Below are positions 2,404 to 35,170 of a stretch of DNA of 64,000 nucleotides, in pieces. The stretch spans positions 156,535-220,534 of the forward strand of contig JAJRWI010000010.1 in NCBI GenBank assembly GCA_024276825.1. The letters run 5' to 3'. Origin of the DNA: an archaeon (GTDB taxonomy: Archaea; Asgardarchaeota; Thorarchaeia; Thorarchaeales; Thorarchaeaceae). Under the pieces are notes generated by a model, which was not told the origin of the DNA, ran no database searches, and saw only the letters and a list, made by a program, of their open reading frames with translations. Each line of letters starts with the position of its first letter. Position 1 is the stretch's first letter. The translations under genes and the position numbers were made by a program.

Positions 2404-3456
2404 ATGAATAGGAAGACTGGGCTGATTATTGGAACCATTCTTGTCCTGGGCATTATAGTCGGTCTTAGAATGGTGAGCTTTGAGAATGTTGGAACCATAA
2501 CTGTTGGCGGACTTCAAAGAACATATCGAGTCTATGTTCCGGATTCACTTGATGAGAGCAGAGCTGCACCACTTATTATCGCGCTTCATGGTGGAGGAGG
2601 CTCTGGTAGGGGAATGATTGATCTAACACAGGGGGGCTTCAACACACTGGCTGATGAGAGCGGGTTCGTGGTTGTTTATCCAGATGCTGCTGAGAAAAAC
2701 TGGAATGATGGCAGAGGCATAGAGAGGTATCGCTCTCAGAGAGAGAATATTGATGATGTCGGGTTTATTTCCGCACTTATTGATAAGTTGGCGGACCAAT
2801 TGAACATTGACCTGAATCGTGTATATGTAATTGGGATGTCGAATGGAGCAATAATGAGTTTTCGTCTTGCATGCGAACTCTCAGACAAGATTGCTGCAAT
2901 CGCCCCCGTATGCGGCTCCATGCCAGAGAACTTCTCGGCAGTGTACACCGCTCAAAGGACAATGCCAGTCATGATGATCAATGGGATTGACGATCCTTTG
3001 GTTCCTTAGGAAGGTGGTAATATCACCTTTGGAGATTTGGATTTGGGGCGTGTCATATCAGTTCATAATGCAATTGACTATTGGGTACAGATCAATAACT
3101 GCTCAAGTGAACCGATAGTAACATGGGAGCCTGATAGAGATCCCAATGATGGCACACGAGTTTACAAAGAAATGTACTGCAATGGTACTAATGGAGCCGA
3201 AGTCGTCCTTTATGCAGTTGAGGGAGGGGGTCATACTTGGCCCAGCGGAAAGCAATACCTCCCTGAAAATGTAATTGGCAAGACATGTTATGATATTGAT
3301 GCGAACAAGTTGATATGGAGTTTCTTTAGTAGTTATTCGTTAGCCAGCACAGGTGAAACCAGACCATCCCAACCAAATTTGAGAGCTTTGACCTGTATGG
3401 ATTTCTCTCCCAGAGTCACTTTTGCGTGCATTGTTGTCTTTTCCGTAAAGAGTTGA
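2404..3456 (+). pseudogene. PHB depolymerase/LpqC-type alpha/beta esterase interrupted by one in-frame TAG (3007-3009)
   Basis: LHGGGG, GMSNG nucleophile elbow, DDPLVP*EGG, GGGHTWP; ORFs 2404-3009 and 3037-3456 are in the same frame. Confidence 0.8.
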
Positions 3457-9045: not shown

Positions 9046-9591
9046 CTATTTTGCCTCTCTTTCTATTTCTTTTAGTTCATTACGAATGCAGGCCAGTTTT
9101 GCAAGCAAGATCTTCTTTCTATGAAGTAGAAGATTCTTTCTTAATGTCTGATCAGGAGTTTCTCTAATTGCCGAAATGATGGAGGATTCCGGGATTATGT
9201 CATCAATGCCTGACTCATAGAGGTGTTGAAGAAGAATTGTGATGAAAGTAGAAGGAAGCCGTTCAGCAGCAATTTTCATGAATCTATAGTTGAAAGTGAC
9301 ATAATCTCGAACTATCTCTTTCGAGTCCTGAACGAGAGCAATCCCTGAATCTGTCAATTCATAGAAGATGGTTCCTTCTACTTCTTTCCCCGTTATTAGC
9401 CCTCTTCGAACTAACGACTTCAATGCAGGATAGATTGTCCCTGTCTTTGGCATCCAGATCCCTTCAAAATCAGTATGGAGGTTGGAGAGAATCTCGTAGC
9501 CATATTTTGGCGATTCTAGCAACTGAATGAATATTAGAAGCTGAATGGGAGTTACTCTGCCGCCTGTGGGAAGAAAAGGCCTAATCTGCAA
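9046..9591 (-). CDS. PadR family transcriptional regulator
   Basis: PKYGYEI, GTIYPALKSL, YELTDSG; heads the oxidoreductase operon. Confidence 0.88.
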   Translation of the reverse strand: MQIRPFLPTGGRVTPIQLLIFIQLLESPKYGYEILSNLHTDFEGIWMPKTGTIYPALKSLVRRGLITGKEVEGTIFYELTDSGIALVQDSKEIVRDYVTFNYRFMKIAAERLPSTFITILLQHLYESGIDDIIPESSIISAIRETPDQTLRKNLLLHRKKILLAKLACIRNELKEIEREAK

Positions 9592-9754
9592 GTAAATACC
9601 TCTTGTAGTCCGTCATAGTAGAATTCTATATAGTAAGAGCCAACCAAGTATTAAGTCTGATGGGAAATGCAAGATTATAATGCAAAAAATTCTTGCTGTT
9701 GACTTGAAGAGATGAATTAGACACCGTTCATTGTAAATTGGACAAAGTTGGACA

Positions 9755-9898
9755 TTAGAGTCCTGTCCCTCCAGGAACGGCACTGGTCACGTGAATGATG
9801 TTTCTTGCCGCATTCACATCGGCATGGATATGATCGTCACATGCTGGACAATAGAAGTACTCTCCTCCCCTCTTCTCCACCTTCGAGTCAGGGTTCTC
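9755..9898 (-). pseudogene. tnpB: C-terminal remnant of TnpB (Zn ribbon half plus RuvC-III)
   Basis: A frame absent from the ORF track reads ENPDSKVEKRGGEYFYCPACDDHIHADVNAARNIIHVTSAVPGGTGL*; CPAC and ADVNAARNI are TnpB hallmarks. Confidence 0.88.
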
Positions 9899-10224
9899 AG
9901 TCCTGACCCCACATCTATGACTATTATTGACTGCGATTTGAACCTACGAATACACTCTGACACAAGACGTTGGACCTGTCGTTGCAGGTCCCCCGCGTTC
10001 CTCTGGCGATGGCTTGAGACCCTGGCATAGACCACACATCTTCTTTCAGCTGTTGATGGTGAAACTCCCCTTGTAATAGCAAGGAGTCTGTCCAGTTCGG
10101 AGGGGGTGATCCTTCTGTGGCCGCCTGGGGTGCGAAGGCAGTGTAGTCTTCCAGCAGCGTCCCATCTTCTGATGGTCTTGGGACACACACCCAGTCTGAT
10201 TGCTGCCTGCGATACCGAAAACAT
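9899..10224 (-). pseudogene. tnpA: IS607 serine recombinase TnpA, C-terminally truncated
   Basis: MerR-like HTH (AAIRLGVCPKTIRRWD...RTPGGHRR), YARVSS, DLQRQ, DVGSGL, then homology is lost. Confidence 0.9.
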
Positions 10225-10437
10225 GACATTTACTGAAATACTTCTCTAATAAGTGTCCAACTTTGTCTAAGTTCTACGCATCTACGCGCTACCCAATAAG
10301 ATTGAGAGAGTTTAGCAGTAAACGTTTACTGCTTGGCGGCATTCAGAAATTCAGAATTTGAGGGAATAATTCAAAGGACAACATTTTTCATATACAGGTG
10401 CGTTTACTTAATCAAACGGGAACAGGGAGCGTAAGAG

Positions 10438-10797
10438 TTGAAGTCCGAACTAGACATGGCTTTTGCAAAGCTGACAAATCCAAGAATGAGTGCAGGTCTT
10501 ATGATCCTGTATAGTCTATTGGAGCCACTCAAGAGCAAGCCCATCTCAGCAACTGAGGTGAAGAACCAGATAGAAAGAATTGCTGGCAAAGACAAGACAA
10601 TGTCCAAGCAATCGATAACAAATGCTGCGAGAAGACTTGAAGAGGTCAAAGTTGTAGACCGAGCAGAGGGATACTCGGTGAATTATGGATATCTGATTTC
10701 GCTTCTTCTACGGGCAGTAATTCGGCTCAATGAAACAGTCAAAGATCTTGAGGAGGAGGTTGCAAACCTCAAACTGGCTGCAAGGAAGACAGATTAG
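10438..10797 (+). CDS. hypothetical wHTH protein with C-terminal coiled coil
   Basis: ISATEV...SKQSITNAARRLEEVKVV followed by a heptad-like tail. Confidence 0.55.
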   Translation: MKSELDMAFAKLTNPRMSAGLMILYSLLEPLKSKPISATEVKNQIERIAGKDKTMSKQSITNAARRLEEVKVVDRAEGYSVNYGYLISLLLRAVIRLNETVKDLEEEVANLKLAARKTD

Positions 10798-11972
10798 ACA
10801 TTTTCTATTGTAGTGGAAACATCATCAAGATCATTAAGAAAGGCATTAAGCGCTCCCTCTGTCACATGAGGCATGACCACAACTCGAATTGTGGGGGGCA
10901 ATGGAGAGGTTGCCATCCGCCAACCCCGCAGCTCCATTTTTTCCACAACTTGCTCGATAGGGACGATTTTGCTCTCAATTCCAAGAATATTCAATACAGG
11001 ATTAATTGCAAGCTTCATGTAACGATTTTGTTCAATCCGGTTCTTTACAAACATCGTTCGCTTCATGCATTCGACTACTATCTTTCGATAACCGAAGCGG
11101 CCAAGGTGTTTCATTATTGCCCATGTGGCCAAAATAGGACCTGCTGGGCGAGTCCCCAGAATCGATGTCTGTGTGGATGCTGCGCCGCGAAGATAGTCAA
11201 TCTTTCGAGTTATTGCCCTCAGCATCTTCTTTGATCGAAACAAAATACTGCCAGCAGGAATGGGAGCAAGACCCATCTTATGTGGGTCAGCGCTGATTGA
11301 GCTGACGCCTTCGACCATAAAGTCAAATGGATATTTTCCAAGCCCAATCTCTCCAAGAAATGGAATCACAAATGCACCGAAGGCTGCATCTACATGAAGC
11401 GGAATCTTATGTTCTTCTGCAATCTTTCCAATCTTATCAATTGGGTCAATCTGCCCCAAGTATGTGGTCCCAGCAGTGGCAAATATGGCGATTGTGTTCT
11501 CAGTTATCACTTTTTCAATGGCTTTTGGAACTGCCTTAAACTCCTTGTCAACTCGCGTCTTTATGAGCTTAACACCAAGCAGCCAAGCAGCCTTGTCTAC
11601 TGAAGCGTGGACAGTCTTGGGGACGATGACTTCGGGAGCATCAATCTTTTTGTTTATCTCACGGGCGGCAAGCATTGCAAGAATGTTAGATTCCGTGCCG
11701 CCTGAGGTAGTGGTACCGTAAGGCTTCTTGAGGTTAAGCAGATCACCAATCATCTCGATGACTTCTTGTTCTACTTCTGCAGTTCCTCTGAATGTATGCA
11801 ACCTACCAGCGTTCTTCTCTAGAGTCTTAGCAAAGACATGGGCACCAAGCTCATGAGGAATTGTTGACATTGAGGCAATGGGATGTCCAGAAACATAAGT
11901 TGCGTCTTGAGCCAGCAGGGCATCAAGCTTTTTCAGAACATCTTCACGGGGTATTCCATTTTCTTCAAACAT
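10794..11972 (-). CDS. mfnA: PLP-dependent tyrosine/aspartate decarboxylase MfnA
   Basis: SGGTESN, HASVDKAA, LHVDAAFG, ISADPHKMG, GTRP. Confidence 0.88.
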   Translation of the reverse strand: MFEENGIPREDVLKKLDALLAQDATYVSGHPIASMSTIPHELGAHVFAKTLEKNAGRLHTFRGTAEVEQEVIEMIGDLLNLKKPYGTTTSGGTESNILAMLAAREINKKIDAPEVIVPKTVHASVDKAAWLLGVKLIKTRVDKEFKAVPKAIEKVITENTIAIFATAGTTYLGQIDPIDKIGKIAEEHKIPLHVDAAFGAFVIPFLGEIGLGKYPFDFMVEGVSSISADPHKMGLAPIPAGSILFRSKKMLRAITRKIDYLRGAASTQTSILGTRPAGPILATWAIMKHLGRFGYRKIVVECMKRTMFVKNRIEQNRYMKLAINPVLNILGIESKIVPIEQVVEKMELRGWRMATSPLPPTIRVVVMPHVTEGALNAFLNDLDDVSTTIENV

Positions 11973-12085
11973 GTTCTGGACTCCAATACGAGTTCTCAAA
12001 ATTCTGATGTATAATCGTTGCGATTAGGTCTTCGCTGTTAAGAAGTTTTATTATTGTTATTGACTCAAACAAAACGGGACCAATA

Positions 12086-12814
12086 GTGAATCTAAAGATC
12101 ATTGGAAACAAAATAGTTGCTTCTGCAGGAACTGCTGCTGTATATTTACCAGTAGCTGCAGGCATTCTGACACCGATGGTCTGGCTTCTTGCATCATGGT
12201 ATTTTTCATGGGACTTGTTAGGTTTTATTCTCCCATTCTCTCATAACATGAGTGGAATGCTTGTCATCGCATTTTCATTTCCAGAGAGCATATCTCAACC
12301 TCTTGTAATTGCACTCTCCGTCATGGATGTCCTCTTTTTCTTCATTGGCATCTCGTTGTTTTTGATCTCATTAGTAGAGATGATCAGGGCTAAAGTCAAG
12401 AAACGTGAGCTTGTGACAACAGGGCCTTATAGATATGTCAGGCACCCACAGCATCTTGGGATATCATTTATCTTTCTTGGGGTCTCATTCATCCATCTAT
12501 TGTTTCCATTTTCCTACAATGTCTACATCCGACCTGGCGACATTATTGCATGGTTGTTCACTACTTTCTTACTAATCACTGTTGCAGACATTGAGGAGGC
12601 GAAACTCACGAGAGAGTTCGGACAGGAGTATGAGGAATATCGTGCAAGAACTTCGTTCATGCTCCCAAGGATCAGACTGCCATTCAAAATGGAGTCGAAA
12701 CATTTGCAGCAGGGAAAACCTCTTCGATATATCATCTGGTTTATTGTTTTTTGGCTTTTAGCATCGGGAATACTATTCCTTTCAGTATTCACAACATTGT
12801 ATTGGACTAGGTGA
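12086..12814 (+). CDS. ICMT/PEMT-family membrane methyltransferase
   Basis: LVTTGPYRYVRHPQHLG, EEAKL..EFGQEYEEYR..T. Confidence 0.82.
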   Translation: MNLKIIGNKIVASAGTAAVYLPVAAGILTPMVWLLASWYFSWDLLGFILPFSHNMSGMLVIAFSFPESISQPLVIALSVMDVLFFFIGISLFLISLVEMIRAKVKKRELVTTGPYRYVRHPQHLGISFIFLGVSFIHLLFPFSYNVYIRPGDIIAWLFTTFLLITVADIEEAKLTREFGQEYEEYRARTSFMLPRIRLPFKMESKHLQQGKPLRYIIWFIVFWLLASGILFLSVFTTLYWTR

Positions 12815-12821
12815 GAGTATC

Positions 12822-13529
12822 ATGGAGAGATCAAGAGTCTTGACAAGTGTGCTGACAGCTCTGGCTTCATTTGCATTATACTTGCCAGTTATTGCAGGAA
12901 TCTTGACACCAATGGTCTGGTTGCTAGCCGCTTGGTATTTTGCGTGGGACTTGCTCTCAGTTATTTTGCCATATTCGAGTCTTATGAGTGGTCTGTGGTT
13001 GGTAAATCTCAATGGGACCACATTGATCATCATATGGCTTGTTGAGATAATAGTGATAATCACAGGAGCCATGATCTTTCTCGCTGCTTTACGTGAGATG
13101 GTCACCCACCGCTCAAAAGGAGGCGGCCTCATCACAACTGGGCCATATTCGTATATTAGGCATCCGCAGCATCTTGGGATTGCTCTATTCTTGCTGCCAT
13201 TCTCATTGTTTCAGATAACATCTTTGACTAGCTTTGCAGGTATTAGGCCCGGTGATATAGTGTCATGGTTGTTTGTTGTGTTCCTTCTGCTCATTTCAGC
13301 AGACTATGAAGAGTTTCGACTTCTAAGACTCTTTGATAATGAGTTTATTGCATATCGAGAGAGAACAGCATTCATCATTCCAAGAATCAGACTAGGATTT
13401 CCTATTGGAACGACGCACCTTTCTCAAGGAAGGCCACTACGATATATTCTCTTATTCTTGACCTTCTGGGTGCTCGCCTCACTCATAATGTTCGTGTTCT
13501 CTTTCGTCGAACTTCAATGGATTTTGTGA
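12822..13529 (+). CDS. ICMT/PEMT-family membrane methyltransferase (tandem paralog)
   Basis: LITTGPYSYIRHPQHLG; shares YLPV.AGILTPMVWLLA.WYF with the upstream gene. Confidence 0.82.
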   Translation: MERSRVLTSVLTALASFALYLPVIAGILTPMVWLLAAWYFAWDLLSVILPYSSLMSGLWLVNLNGTTLIIIWLVEIIVIITGAMIFLAALREMVTHRSKGGGLITTGPYSYIRHPQHLGIALFLLPFSLFQITSLTSFAGIRPGDIVSWLFVVFLLLISADYEEFRLLRLFDNEFIAYRERTAFIIPRIRLGFPIGTTHLSQGRPLRYILLFLTFWVLASLIMFVFSFVELQWIL

Positions 13530-13636
13530 GAAGAAATTCATATGGTGAAAGATTCATACTATGCAGAACTTTACTGTGTTCAATGAAAAAAGCTAATAAG
13601 CAATAAGATTTGACTTCCACAACGAACAACCCCTAT

Positions 13637-13711
13637 GGCCCGAGTGGGGTAGTGGCAACCTTGGAGACTGTGGATCTCTAGCGGCGGGTTCGATTCCCGC
13701 CTCGGGCCCCA
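13637..13711 (+). tRNA. tRNA-His(GTG) with encoded G-1 and CCA
   Basis: Acceptor GCCCGAG/CTCGGGC, anticodon arm GGAGA-CTGTGGA-TCTCT, T arm GCGGG-TTCGATT-CCCGC, C73 discriminator plus CCA. Confidence 0.95.
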
Positions 13712-13761
13712 CTTCTATCATCCAGCCGTTCTAAAGTCTAGAATAATATTATTTCTGAGTA

Positions 13762-15594
13762 ATGCAAGTATCGATAATGATGAGCAATGAATCATTCAAT
13801 AGAAATGGGACCACACTAAAAGAGTTGATTCTAAAGAGAGCAATCGTTGCTGCCATCGCTGCTATTGTGGTTATTGCATCAATCAGTATACTTGTTCCAA
13901 GCACGGTGACTCCGCAGATAATTATTGAGAAGGAGAATAATCCAAGCGGTCATGAGGGATTCAATCTGACTTCTAGTTTGAGCAACCACACATCATCTCA
14001 GACTATGTTGAATGACACACCATTTTTGAGCGATGAGTTTTGGACCATAAATGCATATAGCCTATCGTCTGATTGGTCAACATACCAAATCACGCAATTG
14101 GGAGATCATGCAGTCATTGCAATAGAAAATGGGGAGTGCGAATTTACTAGGGAGTTTAGTGTGAATGTAGCTGTCCAAAATACAATAAATCTCACATTAA
14201 AGGGCAAGGTGATCTCAGGCCAGGTCGAGATCTTTGTAAGATTTTATGTATGGTCGTGGTATACTCCTAATTATTATACAGGGAATTATCAATATATAAC
14301 GAAGATAGACGCGGGAGAGAGAATTGACTTCTCATTCTTTAGGGACATTAGCAATTTGAAGACATTATTATCACCAAGATGGATAGCAAGTATAAGCACG
14401 CAAATAGAAATAGTCGCTGAGGAGAGTTGCGTGGCTCAAATAGATTCTGCGATCATTGAAACTACTTCAGAAGAGCCACTAGCGACTTTGACCGTTGATA
14501 TGCAAAACACGGGAATGGAGAGTATATATGACATATCAGGCGTTTCCAATACTTACAACATTCCTGGAATTAACATAACAGACCTGGCCACATCAGAGTG
14601 GTCGGTCATAACACCTATGACTAAGGACTTGAAGGTGTATCTTCCCTCAGGAAACTTTTCTTGCACTGCGGGATTATTCAATTACTCTACCGAAGACACG
14701 CACTTTGAGTTTCTGCTATCTTTAGACTCAAGACTTGATTATCGACTTGTGATTAGAGTTGAAATGATTAGAATTGATTTCAGCATGACACCAGATCTGC
14801 CTCAGATTGGAGTTTCGATTAGATGGTCAGAGGAAGTATTGTATTGTTGGGATGGAGAGATCACACCACCTTATTCGATTAAAATCTTCATTCCCGCAAA
14901 GGCTGGCGAATTGATTGTTTCTATTGTATATCTTAGTAGAATTGATGGAAGGCTTAGTCTAGTAGGCACAAGAGTATCACTCAATGGCACATTAAATCTT
15001 AAAGTATCAGTAAAGGCACCATTCTTTTCATTCCTTGGAGGAGCTGCTACGGCGGGAGATATTGTTCTGATTGCTGTTGGAATTGCCTTGCTAATAATGA
15101 CACTTTCGAGTCTTAATGAGATCACCAGACCTTATGGGTGGGAGGTAGTAATTAAAGATCCAAAGTTCATTCCAATACTGATATTAGGCGCCAGCGCCCT
15201 GTTTCCATGGTTGGTGGAGTCGCATACTGGCAGTAATTTGGGATCACCACCACATGTATTAGTTTCATATTACTATGTGCCATTCTGTGTGAAACTAATA
15301 AAAACACAGAACAGTCTGCTATTTCCATTAATGTATCAATACCTGATAATAGACCTCATCTTCAAAATCATGGTGTTTTGGATACCACTACTCTACGGAT
15401 ATTCACGCATTGGGTTCAGTATGAAAAGCATTTGGAATGATTATCTTTATGCGATAGCAATACCATTCATTCTAGTTATTTTGACTCTATTTGATAATCA
15501 TGGTGGGCAGATTGGGCCAGGATTGGTGCTTGCGGCCATTGCACCTGCTGTGTATGTCGTTCAACGCAAACTATATCGCAAATTGAGAAGATAA
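13762..15594 (+). CDS. hypothetical membrane protein with large extracellular beta-rich region
   Basis: N-terminal TM, several N-x-S/T sequons, about 5 C-terminal TM; AT-rich. Confidence 0.6.
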   Translation: MQVSIMMSNESFNRNGTTLKELILKRAIVAAIAAIVVIASISILVPSTVTPQIIIEKENNPSGHEGFNLTSSLSNHTSSQTMLNDTPFLSDEFWTINAYSLSSDWSTYQITQLGDHAVIAIENGECEFTREFSVNVAVQNTINLTLKGKVISGQVEIFVRFYVWSWYTPNYYTGNYQYITKIDAGERIDFSFFRDISNLKTLLSPRWIASISTQIEIVAEESCVAQIDSAIIETTSEEPLATLTVDMQNTGMESIYDISGVSNTYNIPGINITDLATSEWSVITPMTKDLKVYLPSGNFSCTAGLFNYSTEDTHFEFLLSLDSRLDYRLVIRVEMIRIDFSMTPDLPQIGVSIRWSEEVLYCWDGEITPPYSIKIFIPAKAGELIVSIVYLSRIDGRLSLVGTRVSLNGTLNLKVSVKAPFFSFLGGAATAGDIVLIAVGIALLIMTLSSLNEITRPYGWEVVIKDPKFIPILILGASALFPWLVESHTGSNLGSPPHVLVSYYYVPFCVKLIKTQNSLLFPLMYQYLIIDLIFKIMVFWIPLLYGYSRIGFSMKSIWNDYLYAIAIPFILVILTLFDNHGGQIGPGLVLAAIAPAVYVVQRKLYRKLRR

Positions 15595-15601
15595 TTGGAT
15601 T

Positions 15602-16054
15602 GTGTTGGTAATGATGAAACGGAAGGATGATCTGCCAATTATTTTTAAGCTGGGTGAAACCACTTGGCGAGTCTTACTGGTTATCTTAAGTATTAGGGAA
15701 CCCATTGGTCCTAGGGAGTTGTCAAGGCGGCTGAATTTCAGTAGTCCCAGTGTTGGGCTATATCATTTAGAGAAGTTGAAAGAGGAGGACCTTGTTCACA
15801 AGACCAGAGATGGGGACTATATTATCAACACGAATGCGGACTTTGGGTTTTTGGAGAACTATCTGTTCTATGAACAGGGGGCGTTGCCAAGAATCACGAT
15901 GTATGCTACATTTGTCACATTCTTGATGCTGGCATATGGATTATTCATCCCCTTTGATTTTAGTGCTCATAATATCTTTGCGCTTGTTGTGGGATGGTCA
16001 GCGGCCACATTCTTCTGGAGAGAGTTCATTAGGTATTATCGGACATTGAAATGA
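15602..16054 (+). CDS. membrane-anchored wHTH regulator
   Basis: IGPRELSRRLNFSSPSVGLYHLEKL followed by two TM helices. Confidence 0.72.
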   Translation: MLVMMKRKDDLPIIFKLGETTWRVLLVILSIREPIGPRELSRRLNFSSPSVGLYHLEKLKEEDLVHKTRDGDYIINTNADFGFLENYLFYEQGALPRITMYATFVTFLMLAYGLFIPFDFSAHNIFALVVGWSAATFFWREFIRYYRTLK

Positions 16055-16121
16055 AGTAGAGGTCAGGTTCATAATTGATTTAAACAATGCAAGGATTATC
16101 TTCTTGATCATGACAGGAAAT

Positions 16122-16264
16122 ATGCATGCTGCATTGTTTTATGATATTGGTGATGTGAGATATGAGGTGACTAATGTTCCCGAGATTGGTGATGGAGAGA
16201 TATTGATCAAGGTTGGTACTGCACTTACATGTGGAACGGACGTTAAAACATACAGGAAGGGGCA
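16122..16264 (+). pseudogene. 5' fragment of a zinc-dependent alcohol dehydrogenase, cut by an IS607-derived element
   Basis: MHAALFYDIGDVRYE...GTALTCGTDVKTYRKGH matches the N-terminus of the intact gene at 20413-21475 and ends exactly at the element end (16265). Confidence 0.88.
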
Positions 16265-16473
16265 CCGTTCATTGTTAGTTGGACATTCTTGGACACTATT
16301 GTCCTGTCCTTCCAAGAACGGTACTGGAATATTTCTCGTGATTGTGTCCTCAATCGAGCTATTTAAGCTCCCACATTTTTCGAGTGGTATCGTCAAATAA
16401 ATATTTAAACAGTGTCCAACTTTTCTATGTGTGCAATTTATGCCACAAGAGGATGTCTTCAAGGGAGGAGGAC

Positions 16474-17754
16474 TCATGTGTTGGTCTTCAATAGTCCTTT
16501 GACTATTCCAATGAACTCCTCCGTTCCAATCTCTCTCTTTATCCTCTTGAGCCTTCTCAATTCTCTCCTGTACCTCTCCTCTTTTCTCTTGCTCATCTCT
16601 CTGTTGTATGCATCCCTAAACACTGTCTTGTCCCTCAACATCCTCCACACCACCACCATCAGTCTTCTGGCCAAGGCTATGGTCGCCACATGATGATTAC
16701 GCCTCATCTTGAGTCTCTTGTGATACTCCCTCAACTCCCATGGACCAATCTGAGCACACTTCTGCGCCACTAGATACATCACAGTCCTGACATGTCTGTT
16801 ACTAGTCTTCACTATTCCCCCTGCCTTACTCACAGGACCCGACTGATATGTCCTTGGGACCAACCCCAGATATGAACACATCTTCTCAGGACTGTCAAAT
16901 CGCCCCACCCCCCCAATCTCTGCCTTCACCACCGCAGCACTGGTCAGGGCCATACCAGGTATTGTGACCAACAACTCGATGTCCCTGTCACCATTCTCAT
17001 CCCTCATCTGTTCCACCAACCCAGCTATGGCAGCATCAAACATCCTCACCCGTTCCTCTAACACCTCCATGTTCCGCAACAGGTCCATGATGATCAACCT
17101 CTGGACCTCTGACACTGACCCGAAGACCCTCTTCTGCTCCCAGGTCAACCCGGTGTGGTCCCCCCTCAGAGCTCTGAGAAGTGCCAGACGCGCAGCCTTA
17201 CCAAAGGTGTCACAGAGTCCAAGGTCCACCAGTACCGTGTCAAGAACACTGTGACACCGGTTCTTTGTCCTGGCAAGGTCTCTCACCAGTCTGGCACGCA
17301 TCCTTGTGGCATCCCTCAGGTCCTTGATGACCCCCTTAGGAACATAGGAAGGTCTGACAAACCCGGCCCTCAGCAGAACTGCCAACCAGACACTGTCCCT
17401 CATGTCGGTCTTGTGCCCTGCCACATTCTTGACCTGTCTGGAGTTTGCCAGGACAATCTTGACCCCTGCCCTCTCAACAGCTGTGAACACTGCACACCAG
17501 TAGACTCCTGTGGACTCGACCACTGCCGTGGAGACCCCGATGTCTCTCATCCATCCGGTCAGTTGAATGAACCCCTTCCAGGAGTTGGAGAATGTCCTGT
17601 GTTCAACATGTTCTCCCATCACAAGACCCAGATCGGATGCCTGCCCTGGTAGATACTGTCTGTCGTGTTCATCAAGTTCCCCAATAGCAGCACAGACCAG
17701 AGTCTTCTTGCTCACATCGATTCCGCAATATTTTAGTGGTCTCATTACACTCAT
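16474..17754 (-). CDS. IS110 DEDD recombinase/transposase, apparently intact
   Basis: GIDVSK, VESTG, KTDMRDS (DEDD); TIPGM...AEIG...RF...GLVP..YQSG (catalytic Ser), VALARR-like IALARR; start likely MSVMRP after GAGGG. Confidence 0.95.
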   Translation of the reverse strand: MSVMRPLKYCGIDVSKKTLVCAAIGELDEHDRQYLPGQASDLGLVMGEHVEHRTFSNSWKGFIQLTGWMRDIGVSTAVVESTGVYWCAVFTAVERAGVKIVLANSRQVKNVAGHKTDMRDSVWLAVLLRAGFVRPSYVPKGVIKDLRDATRMRARLVRDLARTKNRCHSVLDTVLVDLGLCDTFGKAARLALLRALRGDHTGLTWEQKRVFGSVSEVQRLIIMDLLRNMEVLEERVRMFDAAIAGLVEQMRDENGDRDIELLVTIPGMALTSAAVVKAEIGGVGRFDSPEKMCSYLGLVPRTYQSGPVSKAGGIVKTSNRHVRTVMYLVAQKCAQIGPWELREYHKRLKMRRNHHVATIALARRLMVVVWRMLRDKTVFRDAYNREMSKRKEERYRRELRRLKRIKREIGTEEFIGIVKGLLKTNT

Positions 17755-17774
17755 AACAACGACCCTCAGTTCTT

Positions 17775-17915
17775 CTGGGACTGTGGACGACCGGGAGTGA
17801 CAATTTTCAATACGTGCTCGTGGCACAAGGAGATCACTTCGTCTGGTCGTCCAGGGTCATTTTGTCCACCGTCATCCCGGTGACACTGTTGGGCCCGACC
17901 CATCTAGTCCCTGTG
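17775..17915 (-). ncRNA. putative IS110 bridge RNA (target-binding and donor-binding loops)
   Basis: Non-coding leader; outer stem GGGACT/AGTCCC encloses two stem-internal loop-hairpin modules (GGGTC/GACCC and GGACGACC/GGTCGTCC) whose loop strands match the target and the donor junction. Confidence 0.75.
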
Positions 17916-17976
17916 CGGAGAGTTCTCATTGCACACTCATATCTTTTGTCTAGGTTCTACGCATCTACGCGCAACC

Positions 17977-18223
17977 CATACTCCACCACTTTTACAGCCG
18001 GCACATTCTCCGTAATAGTCCGAACCGCTGTGTTCACAGCACTGTCATGATGCATCACAACCACCACATCCGAGACCACCGGTGTGGAAAACGGCATGAC
18101 CCACAACGGTGACAGCACGGCAACCACAAGCAGGGCACACTTGATTTTCAAAAGGAAAAGGTTACGATGACGACCGACTGACAAAACTTCTTTCATGCAC
18201 TCGATAGTCATTATTTTCTCCAT
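17977..18223 (-). pseudogene. 5' fragment of a paralog of 19058-20095, cut by the IS607-derived element
   Basis: LSPLWVMP...VVVMHHDSAVNTAVRTI...PAVKVVEYG aligns to the intact paralog and stops at the TAT-GGG junction. Confidence 0.85.
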
Positions 18224-18609
18224 CTCTTCCCCTAAAGATTGCCAACTCTGAATAATAAGGGGAGCAAATGTAAATAAAATTTCTGAAGAATTTAACTCTG
18301 AGAAAAAGGCGAGTCTGTGTACACAATAAAAAAGGGAGACGAGAAGACCCTATTATGAAAAGAGAGAGGAGAGTTTCTCGGATGTTCCGATCTAGTTCCA
18401 TTCAAGCACTTGTATATTCCACTAACTAACCCCATCTCGCTCATGAGAGTTCCCTCCTTTGACTACTTGGCTCATAAAATGTATATGAAATTTCCAGAAA
18501 TTTTCTCATTTTGAGTGTGAAAGGACCCAAGAAAACATTGTTACACGCCAGAGCTAATTCGTAAAGGAACAATCACCAAGATGACAGCCATTGATGCGAT
18601 CGTGAACTG

Positions 18610-19023
18610 CTAGTTCAGATGAAAGTAAGGCCAAGCCTCAAGATAAGTGCAGCTAGTAGCTATCAAGGTAAGTAATACAAAGATGATAACGATAAGCCAA
18701 GGTGGCATAGAAACCCGTGGGGAGAAAGCAATCAGAATTGTGACAATTATCATAATGACTTCTAATAGAACAAACTGTGCAATGCTGATTCGTAGAGATC
18801 TCTGTCGTATTTTTGCAATAGCCAGATAGAGAAGTCCATCTTCGGTAGTAGAGATCCAATTTGCACGAACAAGTGATCTAATAGAGCGTTCACTCAGAGT
18901 ACTCTGTTCAACAAGCGTGGAAAGCGGAACAGCTGAATCGGGGCTTGTAGCTCCGAGATTCACCAAGTGCCTTAATGCGGGGTTCCTCACCCGACGATTG
19001 AAGAAGAGTCCTGCACTGCTCAC
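18610..19023 (-). CDS. small membrane protein (wHTH-like N-terminus plus 2 TM), candidate partner/immunity protein
   Basis: GTG at 19023 after a GGTGA RBS; two C-terminal TM helices; directly downstream of 19058-20095. Confidence 0.5.
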   Translation of the reverse strand: MSSAGLFFNRRVRNPALRHLVNLGATSPDSAVPLSTLVEQSTLSERSIRSLVRANWISTTEDGLLYLAIAKIRQRSLRISIAQFVLLEVIMIIVTILIAFSPRVSMPPWLIVIIFVLLTLIATSCTYLEAWPYFHLN

Positions 19024-19057
19024 AAGTATCACCAGTTCATCCGAAGAATGTAGTTGC

Positions 19058-20095
19058 CTAATCATCAGGATCGGTGAGATCGCTCAGTATCCCAAGTAGC
19101 AACACTGCAACTGTAAGTGCTAGCGCAATATTAGAAATCAAAGTTACCCATGGTGTAGATGCACAAATCCCTAATACACCTACTTTCCACAGATCGTACC
19201 ATGCTACCGAGACAATGATATAGTATATGAGAGTAGGAACTAGTGGAACCAATGATGCTATGAATGCAAGTAGGGAAACTCCCCCGTATAACCAGCCGAT
19301 ACACATCACAACGATATTCAAAAGAATAGCAAAATATCCTACAGCCAACATTGCTCCTATATCTCTCACGGTCTCCTTTTCCAATGCCCAGCCCATTCCA
19401 TAACCTGCAAGTAGCGAAACTACAAGGAAAGTGACACCTACACATGCCCAGAATAGCTCGTTTGGACCGAGCTGCCCAACGATATATCCGAGGAGCATTG
19501 GAGGTTTATCTTCCCCACCAAGTAGAGCAACCACCTGTTCATACATCATTGTAAGAACATTCTCGCTGGGTGCAAGCAGGTACGTAACGAATAGACCACC
19601 CAATGTCGCATCTACAACGCCAGTAAATCCAATAACCAATCGATCATCAACATATTGATTAATCTCAGCTGAGTTGCATGCCAGCACGATATCCTTTCCC
19701 GGAGTCATCTCTATTCTGCTACTGAATGCCTTCCACGAGAGCACATGTGACTGAGCAAGAATACTGTCCTCTGAGCCATGGGACACCCACACCACTCTGC
19801 CGACCACCCGGTGCAGGGTCAGCGCATACTCCAGAGACCCATAGTCCACCACTCGCACAGCAGGATCATTCGCCACGATCGTCCTGACCGCAGTGCTCAC
19901 TACACTATCATGATGCATGACCACAACAGTATCTGCAACGACAGGGCTTGACAGTGGTATGACCCAGAGAGGTGACAACATCACGATCATCAGCAGGGCT
20001 GTTTCAAGTCTCAAAAGATTGCAATGCCGACCGACCGACGGACCTAGTCTCACTCGTGCACGCACTGCACAATCAACTATCCCTCCTTCACTCAT
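19058..20095 (-). CDS. exported protein with caspase/CHAT-like His-Cys domain and hydrophobic multi-helix C-terminus
   Basis: Signal/TM, VVWVSHGS ... DIVLACNS ... VIGFTGVVD, then about 140 aa of 4-5 hydrophobic helices. Confidence 0.55.
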   Translation of the reverse strand: MSEGGIVDCAVRARVRLGPSVGRHCNLLRLETALLMIVMLSPLWVIPLSSPVVADTVVVMHHDSVVSTAVRTIVANDPAVRVVDYGSLEYALTLHRVVGRVVWVSHGSEDSILAQSHVLSWKAFSSRIEMTPGKDIVLACNSAEINQYVDDRLVIGFTGVVDATLGGLFVTYLLAPSENVLTMMYEQVVALLGGEDKPPMLLGYIVGQLGPNELFWACVGVTFLVVSLLAGYGMGWALEKETVRDIGAMLAVGYFAILLNIVVMCIGWLYGGVSLLAFIASLVPLVPTLIYYIIVSVAWYDLWKVGVLGICASTPWVTLISNIALALTVAVLLLGILSDLTDPDD

Positions 20096-20189
20096 AAGAG
20101 TTTCTTCTTCAATTTTTTTTTTTAATTATCAAAGGCGTATAAACGTTACTGTTCTTTGAATCCGTCTTAGCTTGATTGATCAATTGATT

Positions 20190-20341
20190 GGCTGCGCGGC
20201 CACTTGACCTAAACACAAAAGTTGACAATCTCTAACGTGAAACTTGGAGAACACAAAATGAAACCGCCGTTTTATCGTGTAATATGCCCAGTACCGTTTC
20301 CTAGAAGTACGGGACTCTGATGTCCAACTTACAATGAACGG
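20190..20341 (+). mobile_element. degenerate IS607-derived MITE-like element (about 152 bp)
   Basis: Clear right end CCAGTACCGTTTCC...GGACTCTGATGTCCAACTTACAATGAACGG; eroded left end TGGCTGCGCG...ACAAAAGTTGACA. Confidence 0.7.
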
Positions 20342-20412
20342 TATCATCTCTCTAGCATCACAGCTCTGAAATGAGGAGCCATGTTCACAATTGATTTAAA
20401 CCAAGCAGTGAT

Positions 20413-21475
20413 TGTGTCCTTGGTCTTGGTCATGGTAAAGAGAATGCATGCTGCAATGTTCCATGATGTTGGAGATGTCAGATACGAAGAAACCGATGTT
20501 CCAGACATAGGTCCCGGCGAGTTGCTGATTAAAATAGGCACTGCATTGACATGCGGTACTGATGTGAAGACCTACAAGAGGGGCCATCCGCTACTATTGC
20601 GGCACACGCCTGCCCTTTTTGGACACGAGTACGCTGGGACTATTGAGAAAGTTGGTGAGGGTGTGAAAGGTTTCCAACTGGGCATGAGAGTTGTAGCGAC
20701 AAATTCAGCCCCTTGTGGCAAATGTTTCTTTTGTAAGAGGGAAAGACCCAACTTGTGTTCCCAATTGAAATCCACGTTTGTCAATGGAGCATTTGCCGAG
20801 TATATTAGGGTGCCAAGACCAGTCGTTGAATGGAACACACATCAGATTCCTGATAACCTATCATTTAGAGATGCTGCATTGACAGAGCCTTTAGCATGTG
20901 TTATACATGGCATTGAGGAGGCAAACATCAGGCTTGGTGATACAGTCGTTGTGATTGGTGCAGGACCCATTGGTCAAATGATGATAATGTTAGCGAAGAA
21001 GGCAGGGGCATCAACTGTTATTGTTTCAGACCTTGCAAAGCTGCGTCGGGACATGGCCAAGCGATCTGGTGCAGATGTAGTGATTGATCCCTTGGTCGAG
21101 AACCCCGTACAACGGGTCAAGGAAGAAACCTCCAGCTATGGTGCAGATGTAGTGATTGAGGCGGTTGGTCTTCCTGTCACGTGGGAACAGGCAGTAGATA
21201 TGACCAGAGATGCAGGTACGACTGTGCTCTTTGGTGGTGCTGCATCAGGCACCAGATTTCAGATTGATACCGTCAGGTTTCATTATGGGCAACTCACAAT
21301 TAAGGGAGTGTTTCATCTCACTCCGAAACATGTTGAGCAGGCATTGAAACTCATCATTGCAGGCGACATCAATCCTGACAACCTGATAACTCATGAGATG
21401 CCTCTTGAGAGGGTGGTCGATGCTTTGGAAATGATGAGTAAGGGTGAGAGTATGAAAGTCGCTATCATCCCATAG
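20413..21475 (+). CDS. zinc-dependent alcohol/sugar dehydrogenase (MDR family)
   Basis: CGTD, GHE, CGKCFFC...C, EPLAC, GAGPIG; start chosen near MVKRMH is uncertain. Confidence 0.9.
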
Positions 21476-31130: not shown

Positions 31131-33164
31131 ATGAATCTAACTCGGTTTTTCCCCATGAGAAAGGGTCGCAATTACAAATTTTGTTCATTACTAATAATCA
31201 TGTGGCTAGTGTTCATTCCAATTCAATATACTGTAGACCCTTTGATTCCAGACAAACATGCATCTCTCAATGACCACTCACGAACAGTTGCAGACACCTT
31301 CTCAGTAGAGACCATGTGGGATAACATCTTTGCCAGCGTGAGTAAGGCAAATATCATCAACATAGTACAGACCTTATCAGAGGACTACCCGCAGAGAGTA
31401 TGGTATCCCTTGGATAAAGCACCTTCAGCCCCATTGGAAGGCGCATGGGAGTATGTTAATGATACTATCTCATCATTCACATCAGGGGACCTTCATTTCA
31501 ATCTGATGACAGAACAACTCAATCTGGTGGCAATCAAGAATGGCACTGATCACAGTAGAGCGCCCATAATCATTGCAGGCACAATATCATCGAAATATTC
31601 ACCAGGTGCTAATGCATATGCAGTTTCTGCCGCTGCGGTTCTAGAAGTTGCAAGAATAATGCATTCAATGAGTCTAACAAATGATGTATATTATGTGCTG
31701 GTGAACACTATCACGTCTGGTGGCTATTCAAGCCCCGACCGTGGGAACATTGGTATAGAAGTACTATTAAAAAATTTGGAAACCCAAGGTCGTGAGCCAG
31801 CTATTCTCATATGGTTCTCAAGACTTCTCTACCATTCAACTGATGTTAATGGTGACAAGATCCTTGCAAGTGCTGGATATGTTGATACTACTTATGACAA
31901 GCCAGAGTTCTTGACTGACCTTGTCAAGATGGCATCCTCATTATCAGGATCATCCATGACACTGACAACGGGAATACCCGGAATTCAATGGTTGCGCTCG
32001 GGATGTTATGAGGCGTGGGACAGAGATATCTCAGGAGTATGTCTGAGCCAATACTACTATTATGATGGAAGCAGTAGTTCTGAGGATGATAGCTGGGACA
32101 ACTGGAGATGGGACTATGATCTGCCTGTCGAGGCGGTTGGAGTTGCAGCATCGCTAGTGGCATATCTTGGTAGCCTTGGAAAGGGGGCATCTCCAGAATT
32201 CTTCAAGTCTGGAACAGTCGAACCTGGTAGTCCCTTTAGAATGGACATGCCACTCACAGGCAATTCATTTGTGAATGTTTCAGTCACATGGAGCAGTAAT
32301 GATACAATTTATGCACGAATTGAGAACCCTTACAATATTACTGTGTATTCAAGAACAGAGGATGATGGGGAGATCAATCTAGATTATTTGATCGCTCGTC
32401 CCGGGAGGTTTCATGTAATAATTGAAACCCTTGGTAACACATCGGTGGCAGTATCATTGTCTTATACCCACTGGCAGGATTTTGATGGCGACACATTGAA
32501 TGACTATAGTGAGTTCATCTATGGAACCAATGCACTATCTCCAGACACGGATATGGACCTTCTAAATGACCCTGATGAGATTACTCACGGAACAGAACCA
32601 ACCAATGCAGATACTGACAATGATGGTGCACTTGATGGAATTGAAGTGATTTTTGGGGCCAACCCACTCATTATGGATACTGACAATGACACGCTCCTCG
32701 ATGGTTTCGAGATTGATTATGGACTTGATCCCACAAGCTCGGACAGCGATTCGGACAACATCAACGACGCTGAAGAGATCTCCTTGGGGCTCAACCCATT
32801 GAGCAATGACACTGATCAGGATGGACTTGAAGACTGGGCAGAGCTAATGGCGGGAACAAATGCTACCAATCCAGATACGGATGGAGACGGATTAAGTGAC
32901 CTCTTTGAGGTCTTGAATGGGCTCAATCCATTGTTGGTCGACACTGATAATGATACTCTATCTGATCTGTATGAGGTTGAAAATGGGCTCTTGCCATTTG
33001 ATCCTGACAGCGACCATGATTCAATTCCAGATTCCGAGGACTGGGCCCCCAAAGAGCATTGGATATCCATAATGCCGACAGTTTTACTGGGTACAGTTTC
33101 AGCGGGACTGGTCATATGGCTACTGATGAAAAGGCGAGAATATTATAGAGGGGGATTGCAGTGA
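31131..33164 (+). CDS. type I membrane protein: degenerate M28 peptidase-like domain, beta domain, TSP3-like Ca-binding repeats
   Basis: SPGANA..SAAAVLEVARI; about 10 D-x-D-x-D-x-L-x-D-x-x-E repeats; C-terminal TM plus KRR. Confidence 0.75.
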   Translation: MNLTRFFPMRKGRNYKFCSLLIIMWLVFIPIQYTVDPLIPDKHASLNDHSRTVADTFSVETMWDNIFASVSKANIINIVQTLSEDYPQRVWYPLDKAPSAPLEGAWEYVNDTISSFTSGDLHFNLMTEQLNLVAIKNGTDHSRAPIIIAGTISSKYSPGANAYAVSAAAVLEVARIMHSMSLTNDVYYVLVNTITSGGYSSPDRGNIGIEVLLKNLETQGREPAILIWFSRLLYHSTDVNGDKILASAGYVDTTYDKPEFLTDLVKMASSLSGSSMTLTTGIPGIQWLRSGCYEAWDRDISGVCLSQYYYYDGSSSSEDDSWDNWRWDYDLPVEAVGVAASLVAYLGSLGKGASPEFFKSGTVEPGSPFRMDMPLTGNSFVNVSVTWSSNDTIYARIENPYNITVYSRTEDDGEINLDYLIARPGRFHVIIETLGNTSVAVSLSYTHWQDFDGDTLNDYSEFIYGTNALSPDTDMDLLNDPDEITHGTEPTNADTDNDGALDGIEVIFGANPLIMDTDNDTLLDGFEIDYGLDPTSSDSDSDNINDAEEISLGLNPLSNDTDQDGLEDWAELMAGTNATNPDTDGDGLSDLFEVLNGLNPLLVDTDNDTLSDLYEVENGLLPFDPDSDHDSIPDSEDWAPKEHWISIMPTVLLGTVSAGLVIWLLMKRREYYRGGLQ

Positions 33165-35170
33165 AAGGCATTGGAGAGTTGACACGTAGTATTTTTGGAA
33201 TGACAATAATAGTGGTTATTCTCTTTGGAATGATCCCAATTCAGAAAACGGTTGATGGGGAAGTGGTTCAACTGGTGTTGGACAGGCCCACTCATTTTCT
33301 CTCTGATGATTCACAGATGAATGTGACAGAACTGTGGGACAAAGCTTGGAATGCTGTGTCCAAAAACAATGTTGTGAGTTATACCAAAATACTGTCCACT
33401 AATTATGCAAATAGAACATGGAGTCTTGAGTTCATGAATGCATCCTCAGCACTACTGGGAGCATGGACATGGGCAAATACCACTCTGAAACACTCAACTA
33501 ATGAGGAGATTGTATTTCATCCAGTCACTGCGTTTCAGCATCTCTTAGCAATTAAGAGGGGAGTAGTCGTAGGACCAAGGCCTGTTCTTGTGATATCGGG
33601 GACCATTGACAGTGGCTATTCGCCGGGAGCAAATGATGCTGCCGTATCAACAGCAGCGGTTCTGGAGATGGCCAGAGTCCTGAACAATTATACATTCACA
33701 TTCGATATCTATTTTCTTCTACTTAATGGAAGGCATAGTGACCCTGAGATAAACTATGGGGCCCGAGCATTCATAGAATGGCTAGATGAGAACAATATCA
33801 ACACATTCATGACACTTGACTTTGACAGACTTCTATATCATAGATCAGATGTTGTCTATGGGACAATGGTCAGCTTAAGGACAAACACTGAACTTGGTTC
33901 ATATCAAAGGACCGAGTGGTTCGTTGATCTCATCAAACGTGCCTCACTCACAGAGAGCTCTGGTAATATTCAGCAGCTTCATGGGCTGGAGGTGATTCGA
34001 AGGACCTATGCTTATGAGATGTGGAGAGCGGGGAGGCCAGCAGTACACATCTCACAGGGATTCTATGTGGATTCTCATAGCAACTCCGAAGATGATACTT
34101 GGGACAATTCAGACTGGAACTTTGACAAGGCAACAAGTGCAATTGCTGCTACTGCATGTGCAGTTGTCTATGTAGGAGCGTTAGGAGATGGAAGTCCTGC
34201 ATCGTTTTACGCGAGTAGGACACTTCAGCCCACCAACAGTTCATCATTCGGGTTCATTCTAACGTTGACAGGTTATGTCAATACATCAATAACTTGGAAC
34301 GGAAACACCACCCTTCAGGCTCAGATGTATGACATGGACACCTCAGAAATTGTATATCAGAGAACCGAGGATGATGGGTTAATCACCATGAAGTATCTGG
34401 CCAAGAAAGTCGGTTCATATGGAGTGGTTGTCACTAATGTTGGATCAAACACGACATGGGTCAAAATGAACACTACAATAATCAATGACTGCGATGGCGA
34501 CACCCTGACAGATCATTTCGAACTGACTCATGGCACAAACATATACCTTGTCGATTCAGACCTTGATGGTTTGAGTGATGATCTGGAGTTTAAGATAGGA
34601 AGTGATCCGAACAATGGAGACTCCGATAATGACGGGGCCTTGGACCTTGATGAGTATACATGGGGAGCAAGCCTGACTTCAAATGACACCGATTCTGATG
34701 GCATCTTAGATGGATATGAGGCGTCAATTGGAACGGACCCAACTGACCCCGACACTGATTCTGATGGCATTAATGATTACGATGAGGTCTTTGTATACAA
34801 TACAAATCCACTAAGTAGCGACACCGACCTAGATGGTCTTGAGGATGCATTTGAGATTGAGTCAGGGCTGAACCCACTATCACCCGACACTGATAATGAC
34901 AGTCTTAGTGACCTGTTTGAGGTGCTCAACCAGCTTAACCCGCTATCAAGCGATACTGATGGGGATGGCTGGTCAGATGCATATGAGGTGGAGTTCTGCA
35001 TGTCCCCCACCAGTCCAGATACAGATAATGATGGCATCCCAGATGGCATTGATTGGGACCCACAAGAACATTGGGTTTCAATGGTGGCCCCCATAGTATT
35101 GATCACCATAATCATGCTGATGGTGATATTCAGTGCAATGAAATACGACCTCTACCGTAAGACCAAATAG
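33161..35170 (+). CDS. paralogous M28-like/TSP3-repeat type I membrane protein
   Basis: SPGANDAAVSTAAVLEMARVL; about 10 DTDxDGxxDxxE repeats; C-terminal TM. Confidence 0.75.
   Translation: MKGIGELTRSIFGMTIIVVILFGMIPIQKTVDGEVVQLVLDRPTHFLSDDSQMNVTELWDKAWNAVSKNNVVSYTKILSTNYANRTWSLEFMNASSALLGAWTWANTTLKHSTNEEIVFHPVTAFQHLLAIKRGVVVGPRPVLVISGTIDSGYSPGANDAAVSTAAVLEMARVLNNYTFTFDIYFLLLNGRHSDPEINYGARAFIEWLDENNINTFMTLDFDRLLYHRSDVVYGTMVSLRTNTELGSYQRTEWFVDLIKRASLTESSGNIQQLHGLEVIRRTYAYEMWRAGRPAVHISQGFYVDSHSNSEDDTWDNSDWNFDKATSAIAATACAVVYVGALGDGSPASFYASRTLQPTNSSSFGFILTLTGYVNTSITWNGNTTLQAQMYDMDTSEIVYQRTEDDGLITMKYLAKKVGSYGVVVTNVGSNTTWVKMNTTIINDCDGDTLTDHFELTHGTNIYLVDSDLDGLSDDLEFKIGSDPNNGDSDNDGALDLDEYTWGASLTSNDTDSDGILDGYEASIGTDPTDPDTDSDGINDYDEVFVYNTNPLSSDTDLDGLEDAFEIESGLNPLSPDTDNDSLSDLFEVLNQLNPLSSDTDGDGWSDAYEVEFCMSPTSPDTDNDGIPDGIDWDPQEHWVSMVAPIVLITIIMLMVIFSAMKYDLYRKTK

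Follow-up and report, generated by a model that had tools for sequence, protein, structure and literature searches.

Recombination guided by a bridge RNA has been shown experimentally for IS621 (PMC11208160, PMC11208158), in which a long non-coding left end precedes the gene for a recombinase with DEDD and Tnp domains and encodes a two-loop RNA, the first loop binding the target and the second the element ends. For ISPpu10, a stem-loop in the target is described to add specificity (10.64898/2026.03.19.712850). In the IS607 family, TnpA of IS1535 nucleates on helically phased direct repeats located 20-60 bp from the left terminus (PMC6188088).

Here, we analyzed a window of 64,000 nucleotides from an archaeon of the Thorarchaeaceae (contig JAJRWI010000010.1, positions 156,535 to 220,534), in which an IS110-family element interrupts the left end of an IS607-derived miniature element. 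The locus has the same type of recombinase as IS621, its gene likewise preceded by a long non-coding left end, and the two-loop RNA predicted within this left end would divide target and element ends between its loops in the same way. The insertion is best explained by an intact IS110 whose bridge RNA targets a motif of IS607-type ends, a reading to which we assign a probability of roughly 0.88.

The IS110 element and its miniature host

The following features were located on the window:

16425 to 17947, minus strand: IS110-family insertion sequence, delimited by the rejoined flanks, which form an IS607-type end, by a second copy on contig C36 and by an empty sibling of the host on contig C73
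16429 to 16437, no strand: right-end arm of the subterminal inverted repeat, GTGTGCAAT on the plus strand, read directly
17928 to 17936, no strand: left-end arm of the subterminal inverted repeat, ATTGCACAC on the plus strand, read directly
16474 to 17757, minus strand: intact gene for the IS110 transposase or bridge recombinase, 427 aa with DEDD and Tnp domains (Pfam, NCBIfam, IS621 alignment)
16265 to 16424, minus strand: right-end and inner part of the host miniature element, reaching as far as its TGTCCAA repeat (16413-16419; positions 1-161 of the nhmmer family profile)
17948 to 17977, minus strand: outer 30 bp of the IS607 left end of the host miniature element (profile positions 159-191; 94% identical to 10262-10295)
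9724 to 10294, minus strand: internally deleted IS607 relative with an uninserted left end, linking the miniature family to IS607

Direct reading of the sequence finds CTTTT at both junctions (16420-16424 and 17943-17947), and the boundaries of the IS110 are ambiguous inside this common C-TTTT. Between the two lies a body of 1518 bp, starting with CTATG and ending with CATAT on the plus strand. The subterminal inverted repeat is a perfect 9 bp, the left end comprises 190 non-coding nucleotides and the right end 49 nt from the stop codon to the end of the element. The first-pass annotation had described the shared CTTTT and the 9-bp repeats, both of which are present as stated, and had proposed that removal of 16425-17947 gives back an IS607 left end nearly identical to 10252-10294. 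This was confirmed by the rejoined flanks, which differ from that end at just two bases and by an additional T. About 35 bp separate the insertion from the left terminus of the IS607 end, and a pair of helically phased TTGGACA repeats flanks it. The insertion is site-specific in that the host element is cleanly restored and no target duplication beyond the short common core is left behind, in agreement with the empty C73 sibling. An AT-rich stretch in the right end of the window copy is not conserved among its relatives. The first bases of the left end (UAUGAGUGUGCAAUGAG, 17925-17942, minus strand) are nearly repeated around the transposase start codon (UAUGAGUGU-AAUGAG, 17742-17760), and relatives retain UAUGAxUG at both places.

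Judged by its domains, the product of 16474-17757 belongs to the IS110 family, with an N-terminal DEDD/RuvC-like domain and a C-terminal Tnp domain carrying the putative catalytic serine. The 427-aa frame matches PF01548 (E=3.6e-24) and PF02371 (E=1.4e-19) in Pfam and reaches 235.7 bits, with a cut-off of 140, for the NCBIfam model NF033542 ("IS110 family RNA-guided transposase"). Its C-terminal domain, the sole one to align significantly to the IS621 chain 8wt6_A (E about 1e-10), places YQSG opposite the YESG of IS621 at the position of the catalytic serine, and the motifs GIDVSK, ESTG and HKTDxRD are invariant in the five orthologues compared.

Once the IS110 is removed, the split host element at 16265-17977 measures about 189 bp. 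An nhmmer profile built from the rejoined element yielded 62 matches in the assembly (2.94 Mb in 82 contigs, 98.3% complete), about 45 of them near full length (about 189 bp). On the plus strand, members begin with CCGTTCATTGT (CCGTTC) and end with GCGCAACCC (CAACCC), so that GG stands at both termini on the IS607 strand, and there is no terminal inverted repeat. The TGTCCAA/TTGGACA repeat, which the earlier annotation had placed at both ends of the family, is indeed found there in the profile matches, arranged as TTGGACA-nnn-TTGGACA with a period of 10 bp and mutually inverted between the ends. In the interrupted copy, the outer 30 bp at 17948-17977 hold GTCTAGG, a degenerate version of the repeat, as well as the CCC terminus, which reads GG on the IS607 strand. 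GG termini, the lack of terminal inverted repeats and phased subterminal direct repeats are likewise described for IS607 ends (PMC6188088), and TnpA is predicted to bind the repeats here as well.

The interrupted miniature copy itself has no coding capacity, and the relation to IS607 is seen in the longer relative, which retains the N-terminus of an IS607 TnpA at 9814-10224 (a MerR-type HTH and the start of the resolvase domain) as well as a TnpB zinc-ribbon tail at 9797-9919 (29.3 bits, above the cut-off). The best NCBIfam match of this TnpA is the IS607 transposase NF033518, and its 80.6 bits fall under the cut-off of 110 because the protein is truncated. As no intact IS607 TnpA above the family cut-off was found in the 98.3%-complete assembly, the miniature family is non-autonomous here. 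Going by the IS1535 model, an insertion between two putative TnpA-binding repeats should disable the affected IS607 end, and it is plausible from this position that the IS110 would immobilize its host element; with no intact IS607 TnpA found in the assembly, the question of immobilization is moot at this locus.

Beside the interrupted miniature, about 200 bp at 16064-16264 are 71-78% identical to 20380-20586, the 5' part of a zinc alcohol dehydrogenase gene (20381-21475), and look like a gene-fragment duplicate next to a mobile-element copy. Elsewhere in the window, repeated 66-69-bp units in a long gene (32904-35054) encode aspartate-rich GAYACNGAY...GAYGG motifs resembling calcium-binding type-3 repeats.

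A predicted bridge RNA and its guides

Within the left end, the following RNA features were assigned:

17777 to 17911, minus strand: bridge RNA, a closing stem GGGACU/AGUCCC around two stem-loops that both contain an internal loop (consensus from RNAalifold on 16 orthologues)
17854 to 17901, minus strand: target-binding loop (loop 1), from guide-versus-flank tables and permutation tests
17785 to 17852, minus strand: donor-binding loop (loop 2), from comparison of the loop strands with the element ends in 16 orthologues

In the alignment of 16 left ends, 95.9% of the cells of the consensus fold are paired and 15 of its 34 pairs are compensatory, whereas none of 500 shuffles reached these fold values and controls with slid partners gave at most four compensatory pairs. 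Since four invariant pairs are G-U, the transposase strand is the one from which the RNA is read. Support for the structure comes from the alignment, the leader folded as a single sequence giving z = -1.1, and a permissive Rfam scan of 9500-21000 returned no bridge-RNA family and tRNA only. Taken as sequence evidence, these results identify the IS110 left end as coding for a bridge RNA with two loops, as the term is used in PMC11208160.

The 5' strand of loop 1, GGCCCAACAG (17886-17895), is complementary to the right flank GTTGG, while its 3' strand, GUGGACAAAA (17860-17869), corresponds in sense to the left flank together with the A-run, GACAAAA. For each of the two strands, the summed match between cognate guides and flanks exceeds all of 20000 permutations. 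The best agreement of the 3' strand is seen in the relatives L005 (11/11) and L004 (10/11) and that of the 5' strand in L110 (10/11), L004 (10/11) and L006 (9/10); the flanks of L120 and L122 display the same guide-flank pattern. The two loop 1 strands of the window element match at 8/11 and 7/11 positions, with seven contiguous bases on the left and five on the right, which is within the range reported for IS621. Its 5' guide is the weakest of the group, with five contiguous pairs (CCAAC/GTTGG) and none across the A-run.

This short pairing would also suit a site choice made mainly by protein-DNA or DNA-structure recognition, for instance of a bent or TnpA-bound IS607 end, to which the RNA matches would be secondary, and the target stem-loop that adds specificity in ISPpu10 (10.64898/2026.03.19.712850) offers a precedent. 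Both loop strands, however, covary with the flanks, including the non-IS607 targets of L004, L005, L006 and L122, and a TnpA scoring above the cut-off that could occupy the ends is missing from this genome, for which reasons we regard such recognition as an unlikely main determinant and favor targeting of the motif by the bridge RNA.

Loop 2 relates to the element itself. Its 3' strand, UAUUGAAAAU (17803-17812), agrees with the right end TAGAAAA provided that two U are looped out, the same accommodation of nine RNA bases on seven DNA bases, with two U unpaired, as in the donor loop 3' strand of the IS621 RDG. Its 5' strand, AAGUGAUCUCCU (17828-17839), is antisense to the first left-end bases and follows their variation in the orthologues.

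Under bridge-RNA targeting, the 3' strand of loop 1 would pair with the bottom strand at the left flank and the A-run, and both loop 1 strands together would read the tandem TTGGACA-nnn-TTGGACA of IS607-type ends, while loop 2 would recognize the right end TAGAAAA of the IS110 and the opening bases of its left end. By analogy to IS621, the recombinase-RNA complex would then recombine the excised circle with the TTGGACA-nnn-TTGGACA motif. Crossing-over would fall inside the A-run of the circle junction, which would account for the common CTTTT at both junctions and for the lack of a true target duplication. From the IS621 system we infer that the RNA is expressed, that a circular intermediate forms, which exact dinucleotide would be exchanged and that the element may be active at present.

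The first-pass annotation had furthermore singled out enrichment in a variant with four T as support for targeting, and the empty sites do not bear out such a variant. An empty 4-T site, GACAAAAGTTGG, was not found in the genome; empty miniature copies read CAAC-T[TC]T-GTC and the C73 sibling reads CCAAC-TTT-GTC. Judging from these copies, the pre-insertion site had three T and the extra T belongs to the IS110. The relatives share one left junction (GAC-AAAAG, followed by ATATGAG), whereas the five bases past the right end read AA followed by AAG, AAC, GAG, GAC, AAT or ATC. As these triplets fit the 3-nt spacer between both repeats in the empty copies, the IS110 contributes 1524 bp relative to a 3-T empty site rather than 1523. 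The circle junction should consequently read CATAG-AAAAAG-ATATG by prediction, with the crossover presumably inside its A-run (AA or AG; TT or CT on the plus strand of the window).

Repeated insertion into IS607-type ends

Two copies of the IS110 were detected in the whole genome, the intact one in the window and a remnant of 327 bp at C36:16101-16427, which consists of the left end and the first 53 codons and is 94.5% identical to the window IS110. Its outer junction lies at the same base and in the same orientation, in another miniature copy. If a second insertion were random, the odds of it hitting the same base in the same orientation in any of about 45 copies would be about 1e-5. At C36:16427/16428, the miniature sequence GTGTCCAAC is joined straight to codon 53 of the IS110 (AAGACCC...), a deletion at a short microhomology (CAAC/CAC-AAG) having taken out about 1.2 kb of the IS110 along with its right end. 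On contig C13 (about 2317-2465), a further miniature copy ends ...GGTGTCCAAC-TTTT-CTAT (CCAAC-TTTT-CTAT), followed by unrelated DNA, its terminal 30 bp being absent. As the extra T and CTAT are the first bases of the IS110 right end, we read this as a right-end stub, and the copy is probably a third insertion that was later truncated by deletion.

The identical junction of both copies in this genome would also be expected if one ancestral insertion had been followed by copying of the composite as a unit by IS607 TnpA, in which case the association would not reflect targeting; a TnpA supplied in trans could in principle mobilize such a composite, and riding on the host element had been considered in the first-pass annotation. 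The host parts of the two copies, however, are just about 77% identical and fall in different subfamilies, compared to 94.5% identity of the IS110 parts, and the C36 host is nearly the same as its empty sibling at C73:46613-46801 (153/154 and 33/33 positions identical, 99.4%). These values and the empty sibling therefore indicate independent insertions and not one copied composite. Added to this are the missing TnpA over the family cut-off in the assembly and the relatives described below that occupy the opposite IS607 end and in part the opposite strand of the motif. No sign of a composite of miniature and IS110 being copied was seen in this genome, so that riding finds no support here and we consider it very improbable, favoring repeated targeting of the site by the bridge RNA.

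For relatives in other genomes, we searched 87 genomes of the same order, which gave orthologues at 50-76% identity in 11 of them, as well as a large protein collection, which contributed one group at about 70% and one at about 57% identity on metagenome contigs, whose DNA was fetched. JGI metagenome contigs held no close relative of the window protein and gave matches at 29-33% identity only. About ten relatives in other Thorarchaeota assemblies are inserted between the same tandem repeats at either IS607 end. The relative with 76% identity (L008) occupies the same left-end site, 35 nt from the GGGTTG terminus, at a non-orthologous locus and in a different IS607 subfamily. Four relatives at about 70% identity (L105, L110, L112, L113) lie between two TTGGACA-like repeats of the other IS607 end (CCGTTCATTGT...), and two more (L111, L120) have the TTGGACA motif on their right side, with a left flank too short to show the end. 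A further six (L003, L016, L114, L115, L117, L119) combine the guide GUGUCCAAAA with a flank TGTCC-AAAA, the same motif seen from its other strand, and another two (L009, L014) are found elsewhere in the same kind of IS607 end. The clade is not restricted to such ends, as L004 lies in single-copy DNA. L006 (G015:C581, 52% identity) sits at the edge of a different repeat of about 65 nt, which is not an IS607 end; this repeat, at the left flank of L006 (locus 2944-3063), has at least six copies in that genome.

The flank tabulation across the genome and related assemblies, by which the first-pass annotation had proposed to check its idea, thus revealed the expected enrichment in IS607 ends and failed to do so for the 4-T variant. 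That the IS110 is aimed at the ends of a multicopy IS607 miniature family, as had been suggested there, is borne out by the same-site copy on C36 and by the relatives in the same kind of ends. With the motif at both ends of about 50 defunct elements, the miniatures offer many neutral landing sites.

Given the 62 profile matches, one might ask if an IS110 with no relevant site preference simply landed in a numerous miniature element. The miniatures, however, cover just about 0.4% of the genome, and chance would have to explain in addition why the second copy occupies precisely the same base in the same orientation in another host copy, why relatives inserted about ten times independently into this motif and why the cognate guide matches exceed every permutation, which renders coincidence extremely improbable compared to an RNA-targeted motif.

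Multi-copy bacterial relatives (Methylomarinum, Longimicrobiales and others), which were included as a control for the guide order, share no common target in their flanks, and some of their copies are nested. The Methylomarinum sp. chromosome OZ255706.1 (L043-L056, L068, L080) contains more than ten copies of an IS110-family element with 99.5% identity and with flanks unrelated on both sides, which is unexpected for a family with an RNA-set site specificity.

Comparison with IS110 and IS1111 systems

If the bridge RNA works as proposed, the locus would be a natural archaeal case in which a bridge RNA is programmed to target the repeat array bound by the transposase of a different transposon family. 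Guide and target covary in more than 15 orthologues, offering a ready natural reprogramming series. For annotation, the insertions account for assembly breaks of these elements at IS607 miniature repeats.

Compared to IS621, the protein is longer (427 aa versus 326 aa) and the host is archaeal, the inverted repeat is subterminal with 9 bp instead of 2-3 bp, and the predicted crossover core is an A-run (AA or AG) rather than CT. Both systems have in common a short core at both junctions without target duplication. The order of the guides differs: taking the rules for IS621, ISEc21 and IS1111 from the papers alone, the strand pairing with the top strand comes first in each loop here, an arrangement that loop 1 shows in all orthologues, whereas the bottom-strand guide is located 5' in IS621, and ISEc21 is likewise opposite to our element. 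The geometry of the solved complex is therefore not simply transferable.

In this respect, the element resembles the seekRNAs of the IS1111 group (PMC11187229), in which the complement of the top strand also comes first and the match to the bottom strand second, and subterminal inverted repeats (about 7-17 bp in IS1111) are common to both. The RNA-coding region, on the other hand, lies downstream of the transposase in IS1111 and upstream here, as in IS110 elements of the IS621/ISEc21 type. In sequence terms, the layout observed is thus a hybrid, IS110-like in its upstream RNA and IS1111-like in its guide order and 9-bp subterminal repeats. Should reference sets confirm it, the combination of a swapped guide order and an upstream RNA would bear on the relation between the IS110 and IS1111 layouts and on the freedom of loop geometry.

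We suggest only tentatively, and with some doubt, that the Thorarchaeota harbor a distinct hybrid IS110 lineage which is a specialized parasite of IS607-type elements. If so, the target loop of this lineage would have switched repeatedly between registers, strands and ends of the TnpA-binding array, splitting of the repeat array would disable the occupied IS607 ends, and the lineage could be the intermediate between the IS110 and IS1111 subgroups postulated by Durrant et al.

Regarding the target, the same arrangement of a transposon in a transposon end is known from a bacterial IS110-family element fixed on the 38-bp terminal repeat of a DDE transposon, whereas the target here consists of the phased subterminal repeats of a serine-recombinase IS607 element, present on miniatures in an Asgard archaeon. 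IS621, ISPpu10 and ISPa11 target REP sequences and likewise use multicopy, mostly neutral landing sites (Tobes and Pareja 2006, cited in PMC11208160); unlike IS607 ends, REP sequences are not ends of mobile elements with their own transposase-binding sites. The mechanism is already known from these systems, while the target class and the host lineage are new.
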